The notes: generated from the sequence alone by a model not told the origin. A stretch of DNA of 22,564 nucleotides from Synechococcales cyanobacterium bin59.metabat.ball.084 (GCA_013297675.1 JAAFHZ010000070.1:1-22564), one strand, 5' to 3'. Numbered from the stretch's first letter, positions 4,342-19,844 are shown. Numbers and translations are program-made.

Positions 4342-6735
4342 TTACTCCGCACCCAGCAACGCCTGAAAACCCTGTCCGGCAGTCCATTGCACCGCTCCAT
4401 CTCGACCAGTAATGAAAACCTTGGCACCCAATTTTTCTAGGTGCTGAATAGTTTCTGGGTTGGGAGTTACGGTGGCCGCGATCGCTACCTGGGGACGAAT
4501 GGCTTTAATGAACGTATCAGTCAGCACCCCCCCCGACCAGTAAATCGCCTGTACTGGTTGCAGCTTATCGGGCATCGCTAATTCCCGCTGTTGGTCAATT
4601 TGAATATCTCCCCCAATTAACCAGTGCTGACCACCGATTTCTAGATCAAGTAAGGGCGGATCGGCAAACAGTAAATTGGTTTTGCCGCCTAAAAGATCTT
4701 GGGCTTTACCCAAGGGAGACATATTTATTCCGGGAATTTTGAGTGGTTTTTGGGGTGGATGATAAAGCCTGTTAATTGGCAAATTATTATGGAGAGTTTG
4801 CCAACCTTTGGCTGCGGCATCGATCGCTACCCCTCCGGCGACCGATCCATCGCTACCTTCAATGCTATTGACAATGTTTACACTTCCACCTGGAGGCTTA
4901 CTGGTCTGTAAGGTGATTGCTTGATCCAGACTATTTACTGCCTCATTAGTCAAAAATGGCAGCACCGTAAAACGGGCAGTACTACTATCCCCAGTATCAA
5001 TCAAAGCTGTTTGATAATTCTTTTGAATAACTAGAATTCTTTCTTCCCGCGCGGCCAAAGCCGTAATCTTAAACTCTTGACCTTTGACCACCGCTAAAGG
5101 CACGGCAATCAATAGCACAGACAGGGCTAAAACCAACCGCCAGCGCTTTTGCCACCAGGGAAGCTGCCACACCAAGAAAATAGCGGCGTATAAAAATAAT
5201 AATTGCCATAGACGAATGCTGCCCACCGCAATATTAGCACCGGGCAAACTGGCAAACAATTCTACGATCGCCAGCAATAGCTTAGTGGGATACAACAATA
5301 ACCAAGCCACCGCACTGCCCGCTAGGGGAAAAACCCCGGCCACCAAAGCACTCACCATGCCACCAATGCTAATTAAGGTAATAAAAGGAGCCGCAATCAC
5401 ATTAGCGGGCAAAGAATACAAAGGCACTACCTTAAAAGTCCAAAGCTGGATCGGTAAAGTCCAAATCGTCGCCGCCAAAGGCACCGCGATCGCCTCTGCT
5501 AATACTGGCGGCACAAAATCTAATTTCTTTTGAATCGGCGTAGCACTCACCACTAAGCCCATTGTCGCCAAAAAACTAAGCTGAAAACCCACATCCCAAA
5601 TCCACAGCGGCTCAATTACCAACAGCACCACGGCGGCTAACAATAGCGAATTCAAGGGGCGCAACTGCCGTGATAGCAGCATTCCCCCTAAAACCGCTAT
5701 TCCCATTACTGCTGCCCGCAGCACCGAAGGCTGTGGCCCAGCCATGGCCACAAAAGCCACAATCCCCATTAGACCCAAACCAAACTGCCACTTCTTCGCC
5801 AGATATCGCTTGGTAAAACTCATGAGCGCTGCCACAATCAGCGATACCTGAAAACCCGAAGCCGCCAAAGCATGTGCTAAACCCACTCGCACAAAGACAT
5901 CTTTTACGTCAAAAGGTAAATCTACTGCCTCGTTACCCAAAGCCATGGCGCTGACCAACGGCCCGATCGGCACATCCAACCACCGCACCTGCGCCGCCAC
6001 AATTCGCTGTCGAATCTTGGCTAAATCCCAAGTACGAATTTGTTCTTCATCAGTCAAAAAAAGCTGATTCGCCCGCATCCCCGCAAAGCTACCCGATCGA
6101 GCCAAATAATTTTCAAAGTTCAAGCCCCCCGGATTTAACACCGGCATGGGCTTATACAAAGTGCCCGTCACCACCACCTGCACTCCCGGCTTAAGACCCG
6201 TTGCGCTGATCAAAGGAGCCGTCACATACAATCGCCCATCCACTTTCCGAATACTGGCCGGACTTGGATCATCTCCTTGAATTTGACTGAGCTGGTTAAC
6301 TTGTAGCCAAAACTGCGCCCGATCGCTGCGAGTTGCCTGAGGATAGCTATCTACTACCCCCCGCACCGTAGAAAACTGCTTGGTGCCTCGGCCTTCGATC
6401 GAGTTTACAAAAATGCTGATATCTTGGCTGGCCAGATGGGGCAACCGCATTTGACCGTAAAAGCTAGCCAATATGAGGACTAAGGCCCAGCCCATTCGCC
6501 AAGGCCAAGCAAAGGCAAACTTTAATCTTTTTTTGCGGCTGCGATACCAGGCTTCGGCCAGATACCACCCACCCACTAGTAATCCGGCGATCGCCCAACT
6601 CCACCAAGAATAAGAACTCACCGCCAAGCCCACCATGTAAGCCAGACACAAAAGTCCGATCCGAGCAGCGTTATCCATGCAAAATATCCAGGCAAAATTC
6701 AGGGGCAGATGAAGAAGCAAACCACAATTCAGCAC
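4342..6735 (-). CDS. comEC: ComEC/Rec2-family DNA-internalisation channel protein with a degenerate C-terminal metallo-beta-lactamase-like domain
   Basis: 797 aa with an N-terminal OB-like region, a polytopic Competence domain (many TM helices) and a C-terminal MBL-like tail. The true start may be the internal ATG at 6678 (MDNAARIGLL...). Confidence 0.85.
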   Translation of the reverse strand: MLNCGLLLHLPLNFAWIFCMDNAARIGLLCLAYMVGLAVSSYSWWSWAIAGLLVGGWYLAEAWYRSRKKRLKFAFAWPWRMGWALVLILASFYGQMRLPHLASQDISIFVNSIEGRGTKQFSTVRGVVDSYPQATRSDRAQFWLQVNQLSQIQGDDPSPASIRKVDGRLYVTAPLISATGLKPGVQVVVTGTLYKPMPVLNPGGLNFENYLARSGSFAGMRANQLFLTDEEQIRTWDLAKIRQRIVAAQVRWLDVPIGPLVSAMALGNEAVDLPFDVKDVFVRVGLAHALAASGFQVSLIVAALMSFTKRYLAKKWQFGLGLMGIVAFVAMAGPQPSVLRAAVMGIAVLGGMLLSRQLRPLNSLLLAAVVLLVIEPLWIWDVGFQLSFLATMGLVVSATPIQKKLDFVPPVLAEAIAVPLAATIWTLPIQLWTFKVVPLYSLPANVIAAPFITLISIGGMVSALVAGVFPLAGSAVAWLLLYPTKLLLAIVELFASLPGANIAVGSIRLWQLLFLYAAIFLVWQLPWWQKRWRLVLALSVLLIAVPLAVVKGQEFKITALAAREERILVIQKNYQTALIDTGDSSTARFTVLPFLTNEAVNSLDQAITLQTSKPPGGSVNIVNSIEGSDGSVAGGVAIDAAAKGWQTLHNNLPINRLYHPPQKPLKIPGINMSPLGKAQDLLGGKTNLLFADPPLLDLEIGGQHWLIGGDIQIDQQRELAMPDKLQPVQAIYWSGGVLTDTFIKAIRPQVAIAATVTPNPETIQHLEKLGAKVFITGRDGAVQWTAGQGFQALLGAE

Positions 6736-7676: not shown

Positions 7677-8660
7677 ATGAAAGTTGTTCATAAAACACCT
7701 CGCTTGCTGAAGCTCAAGCAAACCAATTGGATGCCTTGGTATGGACATTGCCTATTTTGGCCAACGGTAGGTATATTTTTGCTGATGCCGCTTGGTGGTC
7801 AATCATCAACTCTCATCTGTAGCCGAGCTAGCGGTCAGTGCCAACTCAATAATGAGTTGGCTGCTGACAATTCTAAAAGAACTATTCCGATCGATGCTGT
7901 CACTAAGATAGATGTGATCGCTACCGATAATACTAGCGAAGAATCCAGTGCCAAAATGGTACTAATTACCAAAGATGGGGAAATGGATCTTGGCTTGCCA
8001 GGTGGTTATGAAGCCAGAGACGCAGCCGCTGGTAAACTAGCTTGGTTTTTTGAAGATACTAGTTCTAAATTTATTACAGTAACCGAAAGCAGCCGATTTT
8101 GGACAAATAGTCTGGGTCTGGCCGGTTTAGCATCAATTTTGGGTGCTTTCTTGCTGCGCAAAACTTCAGAAGTGTCCTTCGATCGAGATACCGAGCGCTG
8201 TAATGTGCAACTATCCAGATTTTTTGGCTTGGTCAAAGGCCGGAGAGAAGTTTGTGAGCTGGCCAGCATCCAAAATATCGATCTGAGTGGCAGTCTGAAA
8301 GTAGCGGACGATCGAATTTTAGTGCATCAGTCTGGCAGATCGAGCTTCTTCTTGAGCGACTATGCTACTCGCGATCCACGTAATGAGCTAACCGCAATTA
8401 ACCAGATCAAAGATTTTCTCGGTCTATCGCTAGCGCAGTCTAACTCTCAACCCCAAGATAGTTTCAGTGCCGAAAGTGGCTGGATAGAGCAAGAATCTGC
8501 TTACTACAGCTCCTCAGAATATACCGAAACCTATACTACCGAGTCCGATCGCTCAGATAGTTCCTTTGGCTCATCTTGCGATAGTTCGAGTTCCGATAAT
8601 TCCTTTGGCTCATCTTCAGATAGTTCAAGTTCCGACAGCGGATCTTCGAGCAGTGATTGA
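7677..8660 (+). CDS. Hypothetical membrane protein with a Ser/Asp-rich low-complexity C-terminus
   Basis: 327-aa ORF starting 9 bp after sodA, so probably in the same operon. It has two hydrophobic helices (FWPTVGIFLLMPL; LGLAGLASILGAFLL) and the tail SSFGSSCDSSSSDNSFGSSSDSSSSDSGSSSSD. I recognise no family. Confidence 0.6.
   Translation: MKVVHKTPRLLKLKQTNWMPWYGHCLFWPTVGIFLLMPLGGQSSTLICSRASGQCQLNNELAADNSKRTIPIDAVTKIDVIATDNTSEESSAKMVLITKDGEMDLGLPGGYEARDAAAGKLAWFFEDTSSKFITVTESSRFWTNSLGLAGLASILGAFLLRKTSEVSFDRDTERCNVQLSRFFGLVKGRREVCELASIQNIDLSGSLKVADDRILVHQSGRSSFFLSDYATRDPRNELTAINQIKDFLGLSLAQSNSQPQDSFSAESGWIEQESAYYSSSEYTETYTTESDRSDSSFGSSCDSSSSDNSFGSSSDSSSSDSGSSSSD
8559..8636 (+). repeat. 39-bp in-frame tandem duplication encoding (S/N)SFGSS(C/S)DSSSSD x2
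   Basis: agttcctttggctcatcttgcgatagttcgagttccgat (8559-8597) is followed by aattcctttggctcatcttcagatagttcaagttccgac (8598-8636). Confidence 0.85.
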
Positions 8661-11336: not shown

Positions 11337-11762
11337 TTGAAAAAATCTACCCCTTGGCAAGCAGCATTTGTGCGCGATAACTTTCCGGTAATCGGCTATC
11401 TTGCTTGGAACGGTTTTAAACAGCAAGGTTGGGGAATACTAGTTTGTAGTATTGATCCCCTGCCGTTAAATGTTGATTTGATGTTGCATACCTGGAACTT
11501 CATTCCACAATTTGTGTCAAATCAAAATATAGCTGGTTGTTTATCAGAGTTCGCTGTATCCCCGGCGGAAGTCACTACCTTGGTGACTGCAATTCAACAA
11601 TACAATCCCTATCAAGAGATCATGCTTCTGATTCGCTGTGGCAAGTCAGTTGAAGTCTGTTGGCTGAAAAATCTAGCTAGTACTCCATTGGAATGCTATG
11701 AGCAGGTGCTAGATCGCTGGGATGAATTCATGCTGGATACCCTTGATCATGCCTCAATCTAG
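11337..11762 (+). CDS. Hypothetical protein (141 aa), first sizeable ORF behind riboswitch 2
   Basis: The open frame runs from TTG 11337 (alternative GTG 11370) and ends 25 bp before the desaturase gene. I recognise no family. Confidence 0.55.
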   Translation: MKKSTPWQAAFVRDNFPVIGYLAWNGFKQQGWGILVCSIDPLPLNVDLMLHTWNFIPQFVSNQNIAGCLSEFAVSPAEVTTLVTAIQQYNPYQEIMLLIRCGKSVEVCWLKNLASTPLECYEQVLDRWDEFMLDTLDHASI

Positions 11763-13010: not shown

Positions 13011-13082
13011 CTAATTGGACATAATTGGACTTAATTGGCTATAATCGGCTCATTAATTGGACATGGTGGCTAATTTGGTGAC
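13011..13082. promoter_or_regulatory. Phased 10-bp iterons (TAATTGGAC-like) with an embedded TATAAT, overlapping the Fic gene start
   Basis: cTAATTGGAC (13011-20), aTAATTGGAC (13021-30), tTAATTGGCT (13031-40), aTAATCGGCT (13041-50), TAATTGGAC (13054-62) and TAATTTGGTGAC (13071-82). TATAAT is at 13040-13045, with TTGGAC at 13015-13020. Confidence 0.5.
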
Positions 13083-14121
13083 AGATATAGAGATTCTGAT
13101 CAGTCAAGAAGTTCTGCGGCTGATTGCGGAGATTGATGAATTTAAGGGCAGATGGCGGGCGCTGAATGCGTTGGCACCCGATCGATTAGCGGCGCTGCGC
13201 AAGGTGGCGACGATCGAAAGCATTGGTTCTTCCACGCGCATTGAAGGGGCACGGTTATCCGATCGACAGGTGCAAGCCCTACTCTCAAATTTGGGTAAGC
13301 AAAGCTTTGCTTCTAGAGATGAAGAAGAGGTTGCCGGTTATGCGGAGGTGATGGATTTGGTTTTTGCCAATTGGGAAGCGATTCCTTTTACTGAAAACTA
13401 CATTAAGCAATTGCATCAGATGCTGCTCAAACATAGTTTTCGAGACGAACGACATCGGGGTGAATACAAGAAGTTCTCTAATAGTGTCCAGGCTTTTGAT
13501 AGTGATGGGAATAGTTTAGGGGTGGTGTTTGAAACCACTTCGCCTTTTGATACACCTAGTCGAATGGCCGATATAGTGATCTGGACACAAGAGAATTTAT
13601 TGACAGCCAAGATTCACCCGCTGTTAACTATTAGTGTTTTTATTGTACAGTTCTTGGCGATTCACCCTTTTCAGGATGGTAATGGTCGGTTATCGCGAGT
13701 ACTGACCACATTGCTATTGTTGAAAGCCGGTTATATTTATGTACCCTATTCTTCGCTAGAAAGTATCATTGAAGAAAGCAAAGAAGGATACTATTTAGCT
13801 TTGCGTCAAACTCAGAATACTTTATTTCAAGATCCTAATTGGGAACCATGGCTATTGTTTTTTCTACGAGCTTTACAGCGACAGAAAAACCGTTTACAGG
13901 TGAAGATGGACAATGAAAAAATCATGGCTTCTACTCTGCCTGCACTATCGGTGAGCATTTTAGAATTAGCGAAGGAACATGGACGGGTAACAACTCAGGG
14001 AATTGAGCAGGCTACCGGGGAAAGTCGCAGTACAATTAAGGCGCGACTTAAGCAGTTAACGGACGATCAGCTATTAGTTCGCTATGGTCAAGGTCGATCG
14101 ACTTGGTATGCACTGAGCTAG
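13057..14121 (+). CDS. Fic-family AMPylase, class II (N-terminal inhibitory helix), with a C-terminal winged-HTH
   Basis: The canonical FIC motif HPFQDGNGRLSR begins at H203. The inhibitory motif S-x-x-x-E-G is SSTRIEG (S59-G64). The C-terminal segment ILELAKEHGRVTTQGIEQATGESRSTIKARLKQL looks wHTH-like. The start may be ATG 13063 rather than TTG 13057. Confidence 0.92.
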   Translation: MDMVANLVTDIEILISQEVLRLIAEIDEFKGRWRALNALAPDRLAALRKVATIESIGSSTRIEGARLSDRQVQALLSNLGKQSFASRDEEEVAGYAEVMDLVFANWEAIPFTENYIKQLHQMLLKHSFRDERHRGEYKKFSNSVQAFDSDGNSLGVVFETTSPFDTPSRMADIVIWTQENLLTAKIHPLLTISVFIVQFLAIHPFQDGNGRLSRVLTTLLLLKAGYIYVPYSSLESIIEESKEGYYLALRQTQNTLFQDPNWEPWLLFFLRALQRQKNRLQVKMDNEKIMASTLPALSVSILELAKEHGRVTTQGIEQATGESRSTIKARLKQLTDDQLLVRYGQGRSTWYALS

Positions 14122-14260: not shown

Positions 14261-15484
14261 ATGGCTATTTATATCATCAGACCGAAACAAACTGCTGTTG
14301 CCCGATCGATGGATTTAATTTCCAGAAAGCTGGCCTCGAAAGATCGAGAAGACCAAGTAGCTGAAGTGACTGAATTACAAGCACAAGATCCAATCCAGAA
14401 AGAGATTCAGCATTGGATAGAAGATGAACAACATGGCAGTAACATTCGGGTACTGAAAAGTCCAAAGTTGCCGGGGGTAACGGGAGCAGCCGTTCTGGAT
14501 ATGACAGATGAAGTTGCTGATCGAATGCGGGAAGATTTATCGGGAATTTACGTTTTGAAAGATCAGCCGATCGAATTAATTCAGCCTGTCAAGCTAACTG
14601 CGACCTCGAAGAGAGAAGAAGAGCTGAATGTAGAAGACCTTTGGCATCTGCGGGCGATCGGCTACCAACCAGGCAAAGGTCTGACAGGCGAAGGACAAGG
14701 CATCGGTGTTGCGGTGTTAGATACAGGGGTAGATTCATCACATCCGGCTCTCCGAGGAAAAGTAGCGAGTGCCTATGAGTTTGATGCTCAAGCTTGGAAA
14801 ACTATTCAAAAGCCTAATTCACTGGATACGGAAGGTCATGGAACTCATGTAGCTGGATTGATTGCTGGTCAACGGATTGGTGTTGCTCCTGCAGCGAAGC
14901 TGTTTAGTGGCATTATTACTCCGAAAGGACGTGGAGACCTTTCTACTTTTATTTTGGCTTTGGAGTGGGTGGCAACTCAGCCAGAAATTCAGATTGTCAA
15001 TATCTCTGCTGGTTTTAGGGGATATTTGCCCCAGATGGATGATGTGATTGCTGATTTGCTGGCAATCGGGGTATTACCAGTTTGTGCAACGGGGAATGAT
15101 GGCAGAAATCGTACTTGTAGCCCCGGCAATTATCGGGATGTGATTTCGGTGGGGGCGGCAAATAAGCAAAATCTGGTGGCTAGTTTTAGTAGCGGTGGTA
15201 CTTTGGCGATCGAGAATCATCAGTATACGGTGCCAAATTTGGTGGCACCGGGGGCAAGTGTTTATTCTGCGGTGGTGACTGGGGGCTATGAAGCTTGGGA
15301 TGGTACTTCGATGGCAACACCAATTGTATCTGGGGTGGCGGCTTTGATTTTAGAAAAGTATCCAAATATGACTGTCACTGATCTGCGAGAAGAATTATTA
15401 TTGAGGTGTCAGGATTTGAAACAGCCGGTCGATCGACAGGGTGCCGGATTGATCCAATTGGAGCCAACTCGTGAATCTAAATGA
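14261..15484 (+). CDS. S8 (subtilisin-like) serine peptidase with no signal peptide and an N-terminal prodomain-like region
   Basis: The catalytic triad motifs are VAVLDTGVD (D154), HGTHVAG (H193) and GTSMATP (S350), with the oxyanion Asn in CATGNDG. The N-terminus MAIYIIRPKQTAVARS is not hydrophobic. The stop at 15482-15484 overlaps the next ORF. Confidence 0.92.
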   Translation: MAIYIIRPKQTAVARSMDLISRKLASKDREDQVAEVTELQAQDPIQKEIQHWIEDEQHGSNIRVLKSPKLPGVTGAAVLDMTDEVADRMREDLSGIYVLKDQPIELIQPVKLTATSKREEELNVEDLWHLRAIGYQPGKGLTGEGQGIGVAVLDTGVDSSHPALRGKVASAYEFDAQAWKTIQKPNSLDTEGHGTHVAGLIAGQRIGVAPAAKLFSGIITPKGRGDLSTFILALEWVATQPEIQIVNISAGFRGYLPQMDDVIADLLAIGVLPVCATGNDGRNRTCSPGNYRDVISVGAANKQNLVASFSSGGTLAIENHQYTVPNLVAPGASVYSAVVTGGYEAWDGTSMATPIVSGVAALILEKYPNMTVTDLREELLLRCQDLKQPVDRQGAGLIQLEPTRESK

Positions 15485-18086
15485 AAGCCATCTTCGTAAA
15501 ACTGATCCGATTCTCCTTGATAGGTTGATGCACGCTAAAGCAGGAGAAGTGTTGCGGGTGGCAATGACGCTCAACGCTGAAGCATTGGAAGCTGAGAAAA
15601 CTTTGACTTTGCCCACTCTCGATCCTGGTCAGTTTCCTTCACGGGTAGATTATCGACAAGCTCTGATTCAGCAACAACAAGCTCGATTAGAGACGAATTT
15701 GGGTGCAACAATTCAAGATTTGCAGGATCTTTCTTTGAAAACTTATGGTGGTACAACTAGTCGAGTGATTATTATTGAGGGTACGGCTGAACAAATTATC
15801 AAGTCTTTGGATTTAACGGGGGTTCACCATGCCAGTTTTGATCAATCGATCAGAATTGAACCTGCTTTGCCTTCTCAAGAAATGCTAAAATCCGCAGAGT
15901 ACTTGACGCAAGTTGCGATCAGGATTCTTGAATCACAAAAGGGTGAAAACATTCTGGGACAAGATCTAATTCGCCTAAACTTTAAGATTTTCATGGGGAG
16001 TAACTATAACCAAAAGAATAATAATGTTGTTGATGCTCAATTGATTAGTCATGCTTTTGAAAAGTATGTTGAGAATTACAAAGCTCGTTACTGTCTTTTG
16101 AAAGTATTGGGGATGCGTAAACCAGTAGAATTAGAGTCGGTTTATACAGATGTAAGATTGCTAAATGATATTGATATTCATCAATTTGAATCATTACAGG
16201 AAATGGAGAAGGCTTATCGAAAACAAACAAATATTCAATCTAAGAGTAGTCAAAGAGGCGGAGTAGATATTGCTAACCAACAAAGATTCTTAATGGTATT
16301 AGGTGCTCCTGGGGCTGGTAAATCCACTTTTTTGCGTCGAATAGGATTAGAAGCTTTAAAGGGTAAAAATTCACTCTTCGAGCATTCTTGTATTCCTATA
16401 TTGATAGAACTAAAACAGTTGAATAATATCAGTGTTGATCTAAGTAAGTTGATTGTAGAGGAGTTTGAATCATGTGATTTTCCTGATGCTCAAGAATTTG
16501 TAATGGCAGCGATACATCAGGGTAAACTGCTATTACTCTTAGATGGATTAGATGAAGTACCAACTTCTAGCCTAAGTGAAGTTGTCAATGAAATCATAAA
16601 TTTTGTGCAAAACAATCCAAAAAATAGATATATTTTCTCCTGTCGTACGGCTGCTTATCGCCAAGAGTTTCGTGGTTTTGTAAACGTAAAGATGGCAGAG
16701 TTTGAAGATGATCAAATCCAACAATTTATTAATAACTGGTTTAAGTCTGAAGTTGATCAAAAGGCCAATACTGCAGAACGCTGTTGGAATGATTTGCAAC
16801 AGCCAGAGCAGCAGGGAGCAAAAGAACTAGCTCATACACCATTATTACTAACATTTTTATGTTTGGTTTATGACCGCTCACAGAAATTTCCAATCAATCG
16901 CAGTGTTCTGTATAGCAAAGCCCTACGAATTTTAATGGAAGAATGGGCTGCGGATAAACGAATTTTGCAAGATGCTATATATCAAGGACTCAGTACAGAT
17001 CTAGAGGAAATTTTATTATCTGAAATTGCAGCAACTGGATTTGAAGCAAATCAAATGTTTTTTTCCAAAGGCAAATTGATTGACAGAATAAGGATATTTT
17101 TAGCTAATAATTTGAATGCTCCTAATCAATTGGATGGAGAAGCCATATTAAATGCAATTGTAGTTCAACAAGGTATTTTAGTGGAGCGCGCTGAGGATGC
17201 TTATTCTTTTTCTCACCTTACTTTGCAAGAATACCTAACAGCTCAATATATTAGTGACAATTCAGCCATTAAACATCTGGTGAGAGTCCATTTAACTGAT
17301 CCACGTTGGCAAGAGGTGTTTCTTATGGTGGCTGGACTCATGCGAGGTGGAGTAGATGAATTACTATTGTTAATGGAAGATCAGGCACAAAAATTTATTA
17401 GCCCTTCATGTAAACATGATGAAGATGTATTAGAATCCAGCTCTAATTTACAAAATCTTTTACAGTGGGCAGATTCAGTAGTAATGACTTCAGAAGAAGG
17501 AAGTAAACTTGCAACTAAACGATCAGAGGCCATTTTTCTAGCACTAAATCTTATCTACGATTATGATCGTAGCATTGACCGTGCTCGTAATCGTGCTCTT
17601 AATCTTGCTATTGACCTTACCAGTGAACGCGACCTCGCTATTGATCGTGCTCGTGATCGGGCACTCAACTTTGCAATCAACCTTACGACGATAAATAATA
17701 ATCTTGTTAACCCAGATGAGAAGGGTATTTACATGGCTCGTAATCGTGCTATTGCAAATGTCCAAAATTATCAAAAAATAAAAATTTTTCAACCCGAAAT
17801 CTACACGAATTTGATTTCAAGTATAGAGAGTTTGCAACCTGATGTTGTAGCGGGCGATCAAACTTTTGAGTTTATTCTTCGTATTAATTCTCTTTGGTTT
17901 GAGGCACTTCATTTGGAACCAGATACATTAAGATTTTCGCAGGATGAGAGAGAAAGGCTAGAAAAATATCTGTATTCGAATGAATTAATTGTAAAATGTA
18001 AAAAATCAGCGGTGCTTGTTTCAAAACAGACTTGGTCAATGATTGAGGATCGTATGTTCAAGGTTTTAACACCACTGAAAACATGA
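15471..18086 (+). CDS. NACHT-domain STAND NTPase (bacterial NLR-like) with a prodomain-like N-terminus and a helical-repeat C-terminus
   Basis: Walker A is LGAPGAGKST (G278-T286) and Walker B is LLLLDGLDE (D358). It also has CRTAAY, HTPLLLTFLCLVY and the WH-like FSHLTLQEYLTAQYI. The GTG start at 15471 overlaps the S8 stop by 14 nt; the alternative ATG is at 15528. Confidence 0.92.
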   Translation: MNLNESHLRKTDPILLDRLMHAKAGEVLRVAMTLNAEALEAEKTLTLPTLDPGQFPSRVDYRQALIQQQQARLETNLGATIQDLQDLSLKTYGGTTSRVIIIEGTAEQIIKSLDLTGVHHASFDQSIRIEPALPSQEMLKSAEYLTQVAIRILESQKGENILGQDLIRLNFKIFMGSNYNQKNNNVVDAQLISHAFEKYVENYKARYCLLKVLGMRKPVELESVYTDVRLLNDIDIHQFESLQEMEKAYRKQTNIQSKSSQRGGVDIANQQRFLMVLGAPGAGKSTFLRRIGLEALKGKNSLFEHSCIPILIELKQLNNISVDLSKLIVEEFESCDFPDAQEFVMAAIHQGKLLLLLDGLDEVPTSSLSEVVNEIINFVQNNPKNRYIFSCRTAAYRQEFRGFVNVKMAEFEDDQIQQFINNWFKSEVDQKANTAERCWNDLQQPEQQGAKELAHTPLLLTFLCLVYDRSQKFPINRSVLYSKALRILMEEWAADKRILQDAIYQGLSTDLEEILLSEIAATGFEANQMFFSKGKLIDRIRIFLANNLNAPNQLDGEAILNAIVVQQGILVERAEDAYSFSHLTLQEYLTAQYISDNSAIKHLVRVHLTDPRWQEVFLMVAGLMRGGVDELLLLMEDQAQKFISPSCKHDEDVLESSSNLQNLLQWADSVVMTSEEGSKLATKRSEAIFLALNLIYDYDRSIDRARNRALNLAIDLTSERDLAIDRARDRALNFAINLTTINNNLVNPDEKGIYMARNRAIANVQNYQKIKIFQPEIYTNLISSIESLQPDVVAGDQTFEFILRINSLWFEALHLEPDTLRFSQDERERLEKYLYSNELIVKCKKSAVLVSKQTWSMIEDRMFKVLTPLKT
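17574..17759 (+). repeat. In-frame degenerate repeats encoding IDRAR(N/D)RALN(L/F)AI(D/N)L in the NACHT C-terminal region
   Basis: attgaccgtgctcgtaatcgtgctcttaatcttgctattgacctt (17574-17618) and attgatcgtgctcgtgatcgggcactcaactttgcaatcaacctt (17640-17684) are 66 nt apart. A third partial copy ARNRAIAN is at 17736-17759. Confidence 0.8.
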
Positions 18087-18200
18087 TATAGCGGTTCCAG
18101 ATCGAATGCGGTGTAAGTAATTGTTGCCTAGCAGGGCTTAGAGCCACCTAAATTCATTTCATCCGAGACGGAACCACTATAATGACTGTTTTTATTTATT
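18087..18200. repeat. Long imperfect palindrome (about 95 nt, rod-like hairpin) plus a T-rich tract directly after the NACHT stop. It could be a terminator, a MITE-like element or a structured RNA.
   Basis: tatagcggttcc (18087-98) pairs with ggaaccactata (18170-81) at 11/12 positions. Inner pairings are gatcgaatg (18100-08) with catttcatc (18155-63), ggtg with cacc, and taag with ctta. The sequence tgactgtttttatttattt follows. Confidence 0.4.
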
Positions 18201-18285
18201 TGGAACATTATACTTTCGTATTTACAATAAATTAGTACTAGTAAATCCTACCTTTTATTGAGTAATAGATAGTATCTTAAAACTA

Positions 18286-18516
18286 TCATGAATCTAAAAA
18301 CTCTTCTTGGTCTAGAGCCATAAAAGCCAGCAGCTCCATATCTTGGGAATAATCATCAACTGCGGTGGTCGCGGCAATCCCCATTTGTTTTCGTCTTTGT
18401 TCTCTGGTCAGTGCTTGGCGGTTGATTTGGACTAGTTGCAGAGCTGTTTCTGCAATTTTAAGCTGATCGATGGGGTTTAGCTGTGGCAAGCTTGCTAGAA
18501 TTTCAGAGGTTCCCAT
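18286..18516 (-). CDS. Small hypothetical protein (76 aa), possibly an orphan antitoxin-like or addiction-module-like component
   Basis: The ORF is MGTSEILASLPQLNPIDQLKIAETALQLV...QEEFLDS, helical with an acidic C-terminus. No partner ORF of at least 60 aa lies adjacent. The family guess is weak. Confidence 0.4.
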   Translation of the reverse strand: MGTSEILASLPQLNPIDQLKIAETALQLVQINRQALTREQRRKQMGIAATTAVDDYSQDMELLAFMALDQEEFLDS

Positions 18517-18692: not shown

Positions 18693-19844
18693 ATGAAGTT
18701 TCTTTGTCAGCAAGCCGATCTTAGCTCCAGTCTTTCGTTGGTGAGCCGAGCAGTCTCGGGTAAGCCCAGCCTGCCAATTTTGACCAACATCAAGCTGGTG
18801 GCCACTGCTGGGCGGGTGCAGTTGACCGGGTTTGACCTGAGTTTGGGCATTCAGACTAGCTTTGGGGCAGAGGTGAGCGAAGCAGGAGAGATTGCCCTGC
18901 CCGCGAAGTTGTTGAATGATATTGTTTCTCGGCTGCCCAGCGGCGAGATTACGATCGAACAAAATGATTCTCAGAATGGTGATGGCATTGTTGTCACCGT
19001 AAAATCTCAGACTGGTACTTATCAGGTGCGGGGCATGGATGCCACGGAGTTCCCGGAGTTGCCCGAACCAGAAGACGGCGAGATTCAACATTTGCCGATC
19101 ACGGCTTTGATTGATGGTTTACGGGGGGCGTTGATTGCTTGTAGCCAAGATGAAACCAAGCCGATTTTAACCGGGGTGAATTTTAAGCTAGAGGCCGAGA
19201 AGCTGGAGTTTGCGGCTACTGATGGCCACCGGTTAGGGGTGGTGGAGACTTTCTTAGAGGCGGAGCAGGGGGCGGAGAGCACTTTGGAGCTGACGGTGCC
19301 AGCGCGGGCTTTGCGGGAGCTGGAGAAGATGTTGGGGGGTAAGCAGGCCATTGAAAAAATTAGTTTTAGTTTGGGTGAGGGTCAGGCGGTGTTTGCTTGG
19401 GAGACTGCCCATGGTCAGCAGCAGTTGATTACTCGGACGATCGAGGGCAATTATCCAGATTATCGGGCGTTGATTCCGAGTAGTTTTGGCAAGCAGGTGA
19501 CGATCGATCGAAAGCAGTTGGTTTCGGCGCTGGAGCGGATTGCAGTTTTGGCCGATCAGCATAATAATTTGGTGAAGTTCACGATTAGCAATGAAAATCA
19601 GTCATTAGATCTTTCGGTAGAGGCTCAAGATATCGGTAGTGGTCGAGAGTCTTTGACTGCTCAGGTTTCGGGTGATGATATTGAGATTGCTTTTAATGTG
19701 CGCTATTTGCTGGATGGTTTGAAAAATATTAATGCTCAGGATGTAGCGATTAATCTCAATGGAGTTTTGGAGCAGGTGGTATTTTCACCAGTGGGCGGTG
19801 CGAAGACTATTTATTTGGTGATGCCGGTGCAGATTCGGGGTTAG
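18693..19844 (+). CDS. dnaN: DNA polymerase III beta sliding clamp
   Basis: 383 aa starting MKFLCQQADLSSSLSLVSRAVSGKPSLPILTNIKLVA, with a three-domain length and the characteristic ATDGHRL and C-terminal YLVMPVQIR. Confidence 0.97.
   Translation: MKFLCQQADLSSSLSLVSRAVSGKPSLPILTNIKLVATAGRVQLTGFDLSLGIQTSFGAEVSEAGEIALPAKLLNDIVSRLPSGEITIEQNDSQNGDGIVVTVKSQTGTYQVRGMDATEFPELPEPEDGEIQHLPITALIDGLRGALIACSQDETKPILTGVNFKLEAEKLEFAATDGHRLGVVETFLEAEQGAESTLELTVPARALRELEKMLGGKQAIEKISFSLGEGQAVFAWETAHGQQQLITRTIEGNYPDYRALIPSSFGKQVTIDRKQLVSALERIAVLADQHNNLVKFTISNENQSLDLSVEAQDIGSGRESLTAQVSGDDIEIAFNVRYLLDGLKNINAQDVAINLNGVLEQVVFSPVGGAKTIYLVMPVQIRG

Follow-up and report, generated by a model that had tools for sequence, protein, structure and literature searches.

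We propose, at what we judge to be about even odds, that the N-terminal domain of a cyanobacterial NACHT-type NTPase is a trans-acting pseudo-prodomain, which binds and probably restrains the subtilisin-like (S8) protease encoded just before it and which has been fused to a NACHT sensor in cyanobacteria. Both genes lie in a stretch of 22,564 nucleotides (nt) from Synechococcales cyanobacterium bin59.metabat.ball.084 (GCA_013297675.1 JAAFHZ010000070.1:1-22564), the whole of which is referred to below as the window. Within this proposal, we infer physical binding, inhibition and the direction in which the NACHT protein would exert control. An initial annotation of the same DNA had described the N-terminus of the NTPase, whose first 131 amino acids (aa) are here called the N-domain (ND), as a second copy of the protease's prodomain, and had offered two roles for it: a module that docks onto or inhibits the protease in trans until NACHT oligomerization releases it, or a homotypic adaptor of the kind known from effector-associated domains (EADs). 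The open reading frames (ORFs) and domains concerned are as follows.

14261-15484, + strand: pro-subtilase (S8) ORF, 407 aa; Pfam Peptidase_S8 at aa 145-388, E = 3.9e-50
14261-14590, + strand: S8 cis prodomain, aa 1 to about 110; β-α-β-β-α-β in the AlphaFold2 (AF2) model, with a long, split first helix
14561-14587, + strand: tail motif of the S8 prodomain, DQPIELIQP (D101-P109), the presumed autoprocessing junction
14693-15424, + strand: S8 catalytic domain; Pfam PF00082, aa 145-388, E = 3.9e-50
15471-18086, + strand: NACHT/NCH2 NTPase ORF, 871 aa, GTG start; Pfam NACHT at aa 273-426 and NCH2 at aa 807-863
15471-15863, + strand: ND, NACHT aa 1-131; AF2 fold, putative prodomain-like partner module of the S8 protease
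15840-15863, + strand: ND tail, DQSIRIEP (D124-P131), counterpart of the S8 tail and one residue shorter
16287-16748, + strand: NACHT NTPase domain; Pfam PF05729, E = 1.9e-15
17889-18059, + strand: NCH2 C-terminal helical domain; Pfam PF22727, E = 2.7e-11

Genomic pairing of the protease with the N-domain

A genome scan for pairs was seeded with the S8 alignment and extended by further look-ups. An ND ORF directly followed the S8 gene in all 24 S8-anchored loci with downstream DNA, and the two genes usually overlapped by 1-14 nt. The overlap in the window is 14 nt and runs from the GTG start of the NACHT ORF to the stop of the S8 ORF; this start is supported by homologs that can be aligned from residue 1. 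Fifteen of the loci encode an ND fused to NACHT/NCH2, and nine encode a standalone protein of 124-174 aa. The fused form was found in cyanobacterial genomes and in several contigs without taxonomic assignment, and the standalone form in Bacteroidota, Chloroflexota, Acidobacteriota, Planctomycetota and Alphaproteobacteria. Gloeothece PCC 7424, for example, encodes a family protease followed by a NACHT protein with a homologous ND. In Dyadobacter, the family protease overlaps by 4 nt with a gene for a standalone 127-aa homolog of NACHT aa 1-131, and no NACHT is present.

The pairing was also seen from the other side, since a scan seeded with the ND alone returned five metagenome loci and a family S8 gene lay directly upstream in each of them. 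By genomic linkage, members of the ND family, which is unnamed, are thus obligate partners of this one S8 clade, in support of the link between domain and protease that had been suggested at the outset. The pairing at both S8-anchored and ND-anchored loci indicates that the ND is the protease's partner and that fusion to NACHT is secondary. No recurrent third gene was found at the standalone pairs, whose neighbors differ at every locus. Because standalone forms exist and no third gene recurs with them, the function of the ND appears to be tied to the S8 protease and not to the NACHT domain. When 60 S8 genes that are more distantly related were searched at their N-termini with a hidden Markov model (HMM) of the ND, no match was found, weak ones included, and a tblastn search of the ND against plasmids was likewise without a match.

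Some of the paired loci show further features. In Dyadobacter sp. CY261 (L004), a second S8 peptidase gene (4718-5845, 375 aa) lies directly upstream of the S8 gene and its standalone ND. Next to one metagenomic S8-NACHT pair (L088, 873-4532) are an EAD8-Trypsin_2 gene and an HSP70-WD40 protein, components typical of conflict-system islands. At L022 (4227-5508), the family S8 gene is split into a 75-aa ORF holding the start of the prodomain and a 332-aa ORF holding the rest, with an intact ND downstream; the split reflects either a pseudogene or a fault in the assembly.

Folds, tails and sequences of the two N-termini

The protease has the catalytic residues of its family, in S8 order: Asp154, His196 and Ser350, together with the oxyanion residue Asn279, are invariant among 44 homologs. 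It consists of a prodomain and a catalytic domain only, with no sensor domain fused. An AF2 model built from the family alignment reached a mean confidence (pLDDT) of 90.1, and its N-terminal elements are strand 2-8, helices 26-41 and 44-57, strands 62-66 and 77-81, helix 83-92 and strands 96-100 and 103-106. The predicted first strand starts at residue 2, and we therefore read the protein as having no signal peptide. When the model was compared with the PDB by Foldseek, the top 19 matches were unprocessed pro-subtilisins, aligned over about 400-460 columns with query-normalized template-modeling (TM) scores of 0.64-0.71; they included pro-subtilisin E (3whi), pro-Tk-subtilisin (2e1p), ProN-Tk-SP (3afg) and fervidolysin (1r6v). 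Mature-only subtilisins aligned over about 270 columns with scores of 0.54-0.57. Since the best matches are full-length pro-forms, the protease is predicted to carry its own canonical cis prodomain, which is docked in the model as it is in pro-subtilisins. To this extent the initial assignment of the S8 N-terminus as a subtilase prodomain is supported by modeling.

Members of this S8 family are about 400 aa long, are conserved from residue 1 and occur in cyanobacteria, Chloroflexota, Bacteroidota, Alphaproteobacteria and other groups (alignment A1); R29, Q32 and W52 in the prodomain helices are invariant. The S8 N-terminus matched no family in Pfam or NCBIfam, Inhibitor_I9 and the EADs included. 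For the protease as a whole, the best PADLOC match was the 'subtilase' model PDLC03014 (E = 4.8e-38), with IetS matched weakly, and the best NCBIfam match was a T7SS mycosin model at 129.5 bits, far under its cut-off of 278.75.

The ND was modeled in the same manner (pLDDT 86.5). Its elements are helices 5-10 and 13-21, strand 27-34, helix 58-86, strands 90-92 and 99-105, helix 106-113 and strand 118-127. The initial annotation was to fall if the two N-termini proved to be unrelated folds, but the AF2 models give both the same β-α-β-β-α-β topology, and the offset of +22 residues between the two proteins that the initial annotation had used brings their predicted secondary structures into better agreement than any other offset (32 of 39 positions). 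Two short upstream stretches that had been singled out as β-like turned out to be the first strand of each domain, namely S8 residues 2-8 (IYIIRPK) and ND residues 27-34 (VLRVAMTL). In a Foldseek search of the PDB with the ND model, subtilase prodomains took ranks 1, 2 and 4-8 (E = 0.08-2); among them were 8c4z_A, 3afg (probability 0.94), CspB (4i0w_A), the Tk-subtilisin propeptide (2z58_B) and P chains of PCSK9. Against the isolated prodomain chains 4i0w_A, 8c4x_B and 2z58_B, TM scores normalized to the target were 0.52-0.66, the highest being that for 2z58_B (0.66).

The prodomain of the S8 family ends in the motif D[QR]PIELIxP (D101-P109). In alignment A3, which holds the S8 N-termini of 30 members, D101 is nearly invariant and L106, I107 and P109 are invariant. 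We read this motif as the junction because it has the spacing of classical propeptides (D-x-x-V-x-x-P1), and by that analogy it is presumed to cover positions P4 to P2' of the autoprocessing site. In standalone NDs, the last strand closes with a near-copy of this nonamer, and a short, charged tail rich in Pro comes after it. The tail of each ND was compared without gaps with the S8 motif of its own locus at seven standalone loci, using 1,000 shuffles. Four of the seven gave p <= 0.008, and all of these matches lay at the end of the last strand:

L085: S8 DQPIELIRP, ND DQPIKLIEP; score 38, p = 0.001
L019: S8 DRPLNLIQP, ND DRPIKLVRP; score 35, reached by 0 of 1,000 shuffles
L086: ND DRRIELVAP; score 31, p = 0.001
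L020: ND DTPLPPLRP; score 26, p = 0.008

NACHT-fused ND tails, including DQSIRIEP in the window, are diverged and have no score in this ungapped test. The shared motif of the initial annotation is real in relatives, between the S8 prodomain and standalone NDs.

These tails also bear on an alternative in which the ND is not a restraint but a latent effector or substrate like Pepco or EACC1. The S8 protease would then cut the tail after the conserved Ile or Leu (..PIKLI|EP..), freeing or activating the ND. We consider this unlikely; the accompanying notion that, in the fused form, the cut severs the ND from NACHT is to be doubted to the same degree. It is nevertheless a serious rival. Where defense loci conserve a protease next to a small protein with no enzymatic activity, the two have often proved to be a protease and its latent effector; the 117-aa Pepco, for instance, becomes active once its charged, Pro-rich C-terminal tail is cut behind a conserved Ile (Evans et al. 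2025, 10.1101/2025.11.14.688446). Standalone ND tails such as ..IELV-APRGRKQPPPKGHETDAS and ..IKLI-EPVVDKSHSGE fit that description, a tail that copies the S8 junction motif may plausibly be a cleavage site, and the corresponding slot of a sister NACHT can hold a true effector, a TIR domain. Against this, a compact, soluble α/β sandwich is predicted for the ND, the closest folds in the PDB are those of S8 prodomains and not of barrel-forming or membrane-active proteins, and the ND matches no Pfam family. The sensor, moreover, is fused here to the small protein and in Pepco systems to the protease, and standalone pairs that lack a sensor would leave an activator and a latent toxin without control.

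A restraining pseudo-prodomain must itself be weighed against several results that speak against it. Every PDB match of the ND by Foldseek had E > 0.05 and none reached 0.001 or below; generic ferredoxin-like folds (MORF, ACT, BLUF and KH) were also in the list. Inhibitor_I9 was absent at E <= 10 from the Pfam results of the window ND and 17 family members, and the ND matched no family in Pfam, NCBIfam or PADLOC, EAD families included. The initial annotation had looked to the I9 and EAD families in Pfam for both N-termini, and neither gave a match. At the level of sequence, the two segments that had been likened to each other, S8 aa 76-109 (AAVLDMTDEVADRMREDLSGIYVLKDQPIELIQP, 14486-14587) and NACHT aa 98-131 (RVIIIEGTAEQIIKSLDLTGVHHASFDQSIRIEP, 15762-15863), are correctly placed, and they parse alike as structure (strand 77-81, helix 83-92 and strands 96-100 and 103-106 in S8; strand 99-105, helix 106-113 and strand 118-127 in the ND). 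Their sequences, on the other hand, resemble each other no better than chance: without gaps they share 5 of 34 residues with a BLOSUM62 score of 1. The two N-termini gave a Smith-Waterman score of 33 (shuffles 32.5 +/- 5) and a BLASTP E of 0.35. Family profiles, for which homologs had come from full-length searches of the S8 and NACHT proteins, did no better. An hhalign comparison of A2, an alignment of mostly NACHT-fused NDs, with A3 gave a probability of 0.26% in a register other than +22, and the profile-profile score of the +22 register was -14.7. The 'DQxIxL' block alone scored positively (10.6), a value reached by 37% of column shuffles. Within the window, sequence homology of a kind that could be detected does not support the idea of a second copy, and direct homology of the two segments was rejected, as BLASTP, Smith-Waterman shuffles, hhalign and profile-profile scoring were all at chance.

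Standalone NDs behaved differently from the window ND. An hhalign comparison of the nine standalone NDs with the S8 prodomain family aligned ND 31-143 to S8 3-121 over 105 collinear columns (P = E = 0.0026, probability 11.5%, score 24.1), following the element order of the initial annotation. Column shuffles scored 12.0 +/- 2.2 with a maximum of 19.3, so that 0 of 150 reached 24.1, and the reversed alignment scored 13.5. Shuffling in eight-column blocks reached 24.1 in 5 of 150 cases. The signal is real, yet it rests mainly on the nine-residue tail, and this too counts against our proposal.

Based on such results, one could argue that the ND is an unrelated ferredoxin-like domain, for instance a small-ligand or peptide sensor or a folding helper, that some other reason accounts for its linkage to the S8 gene, and that its tail match is convergence or chance. 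The weak structural matches, all with E > 0.05 and with ACT, MORF, BLUF and KH among them, would fit, as would the lack of an HMM-level link to I9 and the chance-level similarity of the window pair. We regard this as very improbable, given that prodomains hold PDB ranks 1, 2 and 4-8, that four independent lineages show the tail match at the equivalent place in the structure, that the order of hhalign columns is kept across the entire domain and that the gene pairing is strict in both directions. In topology and in its best PDB matches, which are prodomains at E > 0.05, the NACHT N-terminus is in line with the initial annotation.

Other searches added little. Profile searches of PDB sequences with either N-terminal alignment returned only noise and no prodomain, and a search of viral folds in BFVD gave nothing significant. 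In a word-indexed database, the isolated NACHT N-terminus had no match and the isolated S8 N-terminus matched one fragment. The lack of a Pfam or NCBIfam match for the ND is to be read with the limit that the presence of Pepco/Trypco and EACC1 models in that Pfam release was not checked.

The NACHT carrier and the surrounding DNA

The protein that carries the ND in the window is a NACHT-type STAND NTPase by its profile match and by its intact Walker A (GAPGAGKS, aa 278-285) and Walker B (LLLLDGLDE, aa 354-362) motifs. A full-length search gave 27,039 homologs at E <= 0.001, and only about 20 of the top 150 NACHT representatives carry the ND. Sister NACHTs have TIR_2 (P0187, P0188) or EAD4 (P0211) where the ND sits; the match of P0211 to EAD4 (E = 7.9e-34) served as a positive control. 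Because these domains occur there, the slot is an effector or adaptor position, in agreement with the initial annotation. Three further sister NACHTs (P0196, P0200 and P0167) share an N-terminal domain of about 170-210 aa (..SVKPIINYPSLAQIGQTYLMTIDL..) in the same slot; it has no Pfam match and could be a further unnamed module of the effector or adaptor type. Within the presumed sensor region of the window protein, upstream of NCH2, the motif DRAR[ND]RALN[LF]AI[DN]L occurs twice (17577-17618 and 17643-17684).

The occupants of this slot raise the question of whether the ND is purely a homotypic adaptor in the manner of EADs. It would pair with the S8 cis prodomain and recruit zymogens to the NACHT oligomer, where they would process themselves by proximity, and no inhibition would be involved. 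EADs are defined by the presence of the same domain on an NTPase-side protein and on an adjacent effector protein (PMC7159879). The common fold and topology of the two partners, the EAD4 domain in the ND slot of a sister NACHT and the invariant R29, Q32 and W52, which could form a conserved docking surface on the S8 prodomain helices, are all consistent with such a role. We consider it distinctly unlikely, because the two-gene form has no sensor and a standalone ND without a sensor or third partner would have nothing to adapt to; in addition, the two domains of the fused systems are not detectably one family by sequence, and the ND matches no EAD family in Pfam. A standalone pair that lacks both a sensor and a recurrent third gene argues for direct action on the protease, which favors the docking or inhibition hypothesis of the initial annotation over a pure adaptor.

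Base composition changes inside the NACHT ORF. Within 15850-18300, a step is seen at about 15,900, which is the boundary between the ND and the linker. GC content is 46.7% in S8, 42.7% in the ND, 35.9% in the NACHT body and 47% in the flanks, and GC at third codon positions is 0.38, 0.34 and 0.26 in S8, the ND and the NACHT body, respectively. A similar drop occurs at L021, L016 and L007 and is absent from some other loci. Judged by composition, the step may be a sign that the S8-ND unit and NACHT bodies were shuffled as modules.

Annotated neighbors in the window are a Fic/DOC gene, a fatty-acid desaturase, an HlyD-type protein and dnaN, and no gasdermin-type target was seen among them beside the protease. 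The Fic/DOC-family gene (13057-14121), which has a DIP2311-like C-terminal domain, lies on the same strand directly upstream of the protease; its adjacency to the S8-ND pair was not kept at the other loci examined. The dnaN gene (18693-19844) lies just downstream of the NACHT gene. The GC skew switches sign near 20 kb (about 20000), at the peak of the cumulative skew, and gene orientation could explain this. Two + strand ORFs at 7677-8660 (327 aa) and 11337-11762 (141 aa) had no Pfam match.

Proposed mechanism and comparison with known systems

In the mechanism we favor, the ND would dock on its cognate S8 protease and present its tail to the substrate cleft, and the docked ND would hold on to the protease and, in all likelihood, restrain it. 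In the non-cyanobacterial phyla, the two genes would form a self-contained protease/partner pair. In cyanobacteria, the partner gene would have been joined to a gene for a NACHT/NCH2 NTPase, at its N-terminal effector slot, and NTP-dependent oligomerization of the sensor would then decide the release or activation of the protease. One possible route is that clustered S8 molecules would cut each other's tethers or prodomains. As to origin, it is quite possible, if somewhat short of probable, that a paralog of a subtilase prodomain became a free-standing 'second prodomain' that gates its cognate cytoplasmic protease, giving in many phyla a two-gene pair similar to a toxin and antitoxin, and was grafted onto a NACHT sensor in cyanobacteria.

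Two observations are at odds with this mechanism. The S8 protease already has a cis prodomain, which in the model is docked and would occupy the canonical site of the zymogen; with that site taken, the ND would need to come into play once autoprocessing is over, or to bind at another site. In addition, a conserved Ile with a charged, Pro-rich tail is also typical of a protease-activated effector such as Pepco. A restraining pseudo-prodomain, which we consider the most economical reading, has a precedent in the I9-type subtilase inhibitors that exist as proteins of their own.

Subtilisin propeptides and I9 inhibitors (pro-subtilisin E, the Tk-subtilisin propeptide, POIA1 of fungi and PBI2 of yeast) are β-α-β-β-α-β open sandwiches with a D-x-x-[IV] motif in the last strand, which leads into the tail, and in these respects the predicted ND appears to resemble them. 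Such prodomains are its best, although weak, PDB matches. Some I9 inhibitors are free-standing and act on a cognate subtilase, and the POIA1-subtilisin complex (1v5i) was among the Foldseek matches of the S8 model. The ND differs in that Inhibitor_I9 in Pfam does not match it, in its two extra N-terminal helices and its first helix of about 29 residues, in being encoded besides a complete cis prodomain, and in its fusion to NACHT in cyanobacteria.

The arrangement also recalls EAD1-11 of NTP-dependent conflict systems (PMC7159879), in which a small non-enzymatic N-terminal domain on the NTPase side is matched by a like-folded domain on an adjacent effector protein, and EAD4 itself fills the ND slot in a sister NACHT. 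In Kaur et al. 2020 (PMC7159879), an EAD is one domain that recurs in the two partners, and S8 is mentioned in another system only. In contrast to EADs, the ND matches no EAD family, the copies in fused systems are not recognizably one family by sequence, the effector-side 'copy' would be the protease's own prodomain, and the ND also occurs standalone without an NTPase.

Like Pepco (Trypco) and EACC1, the ND is a small protein of about 120-145 aa that is always found beside a protease, and cyanobacteria are rich in such proteins. Standalone NDs share with Pepco, going by their sequences, the conserved Ile or Leu and the charged, Pro-rich C-terminal tail. The differences are that no Pfam family matches the ND, that a prodomain-like α/β sandwich and not a barrel former is predicted, and that the sensor is on the small protein and not on the protease. 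The partner, furthermore, is a subtilase with its own prodomain, while the Pepco representative that has been studied is paired with a trypsin-like protease, and EACC1 with cysteine (caspase-like) proteases.

Bacterial NLR-like STAND proteins fire fused effectors or recruit them via death-like or EAD adaptors. The window protein shares with bNACHT and Avs proteins the order of an N-terminal effector or adaptor, a central NACHT and a C-terminal sensor; cyanobacteria are rich in paralogs, and peptidases are among the effectors of these systems. The peptidase effectors in a survey of bNACHT proteins were caspase, trypsin, transglutaminase-like and SMT4 domains fused in cis (Kibby et al. 2022, 10.1101/2022.07.19.500537), whereas the subtilase is encoded separately here and would be coupled through a prodomain-like module. 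Recruitment of procaspases by CARD or PYD domains in the apoptosome and inflammasome offers an analogy, since a zymogen is coupled there to an NLR/STAND oligomer by an N-terminal module related to its pro-region, as may be the case here; the death fold and the α/β sandwich are unrelated. Among the open-access papers and bioRxiv preprints searched, none was found to describe a prodomain-like module as the link between a subtilase and a NACHT protein.

In conclusion, an NLR-like sensor with a protease effector is of a known kind, and what would be new is the type of coupling module, together with an unnamed, widespread protease-partner pair. The two-gene module of a cytoplasmic pro-subtilase and a small partner is defined in at least six phyla and may be a protease-based toxin-antitoxin or defense unit. 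If our proposal is correct, a domain of about 130 aa with a nine-residue tail would provide a testable handle that could switch the protease on or off. The tie of a separate subtilase to a sensor through a prodomain-like module would then be a new wiring principle, distinct from recruitment by death folds, EADs or amyloid motifs.

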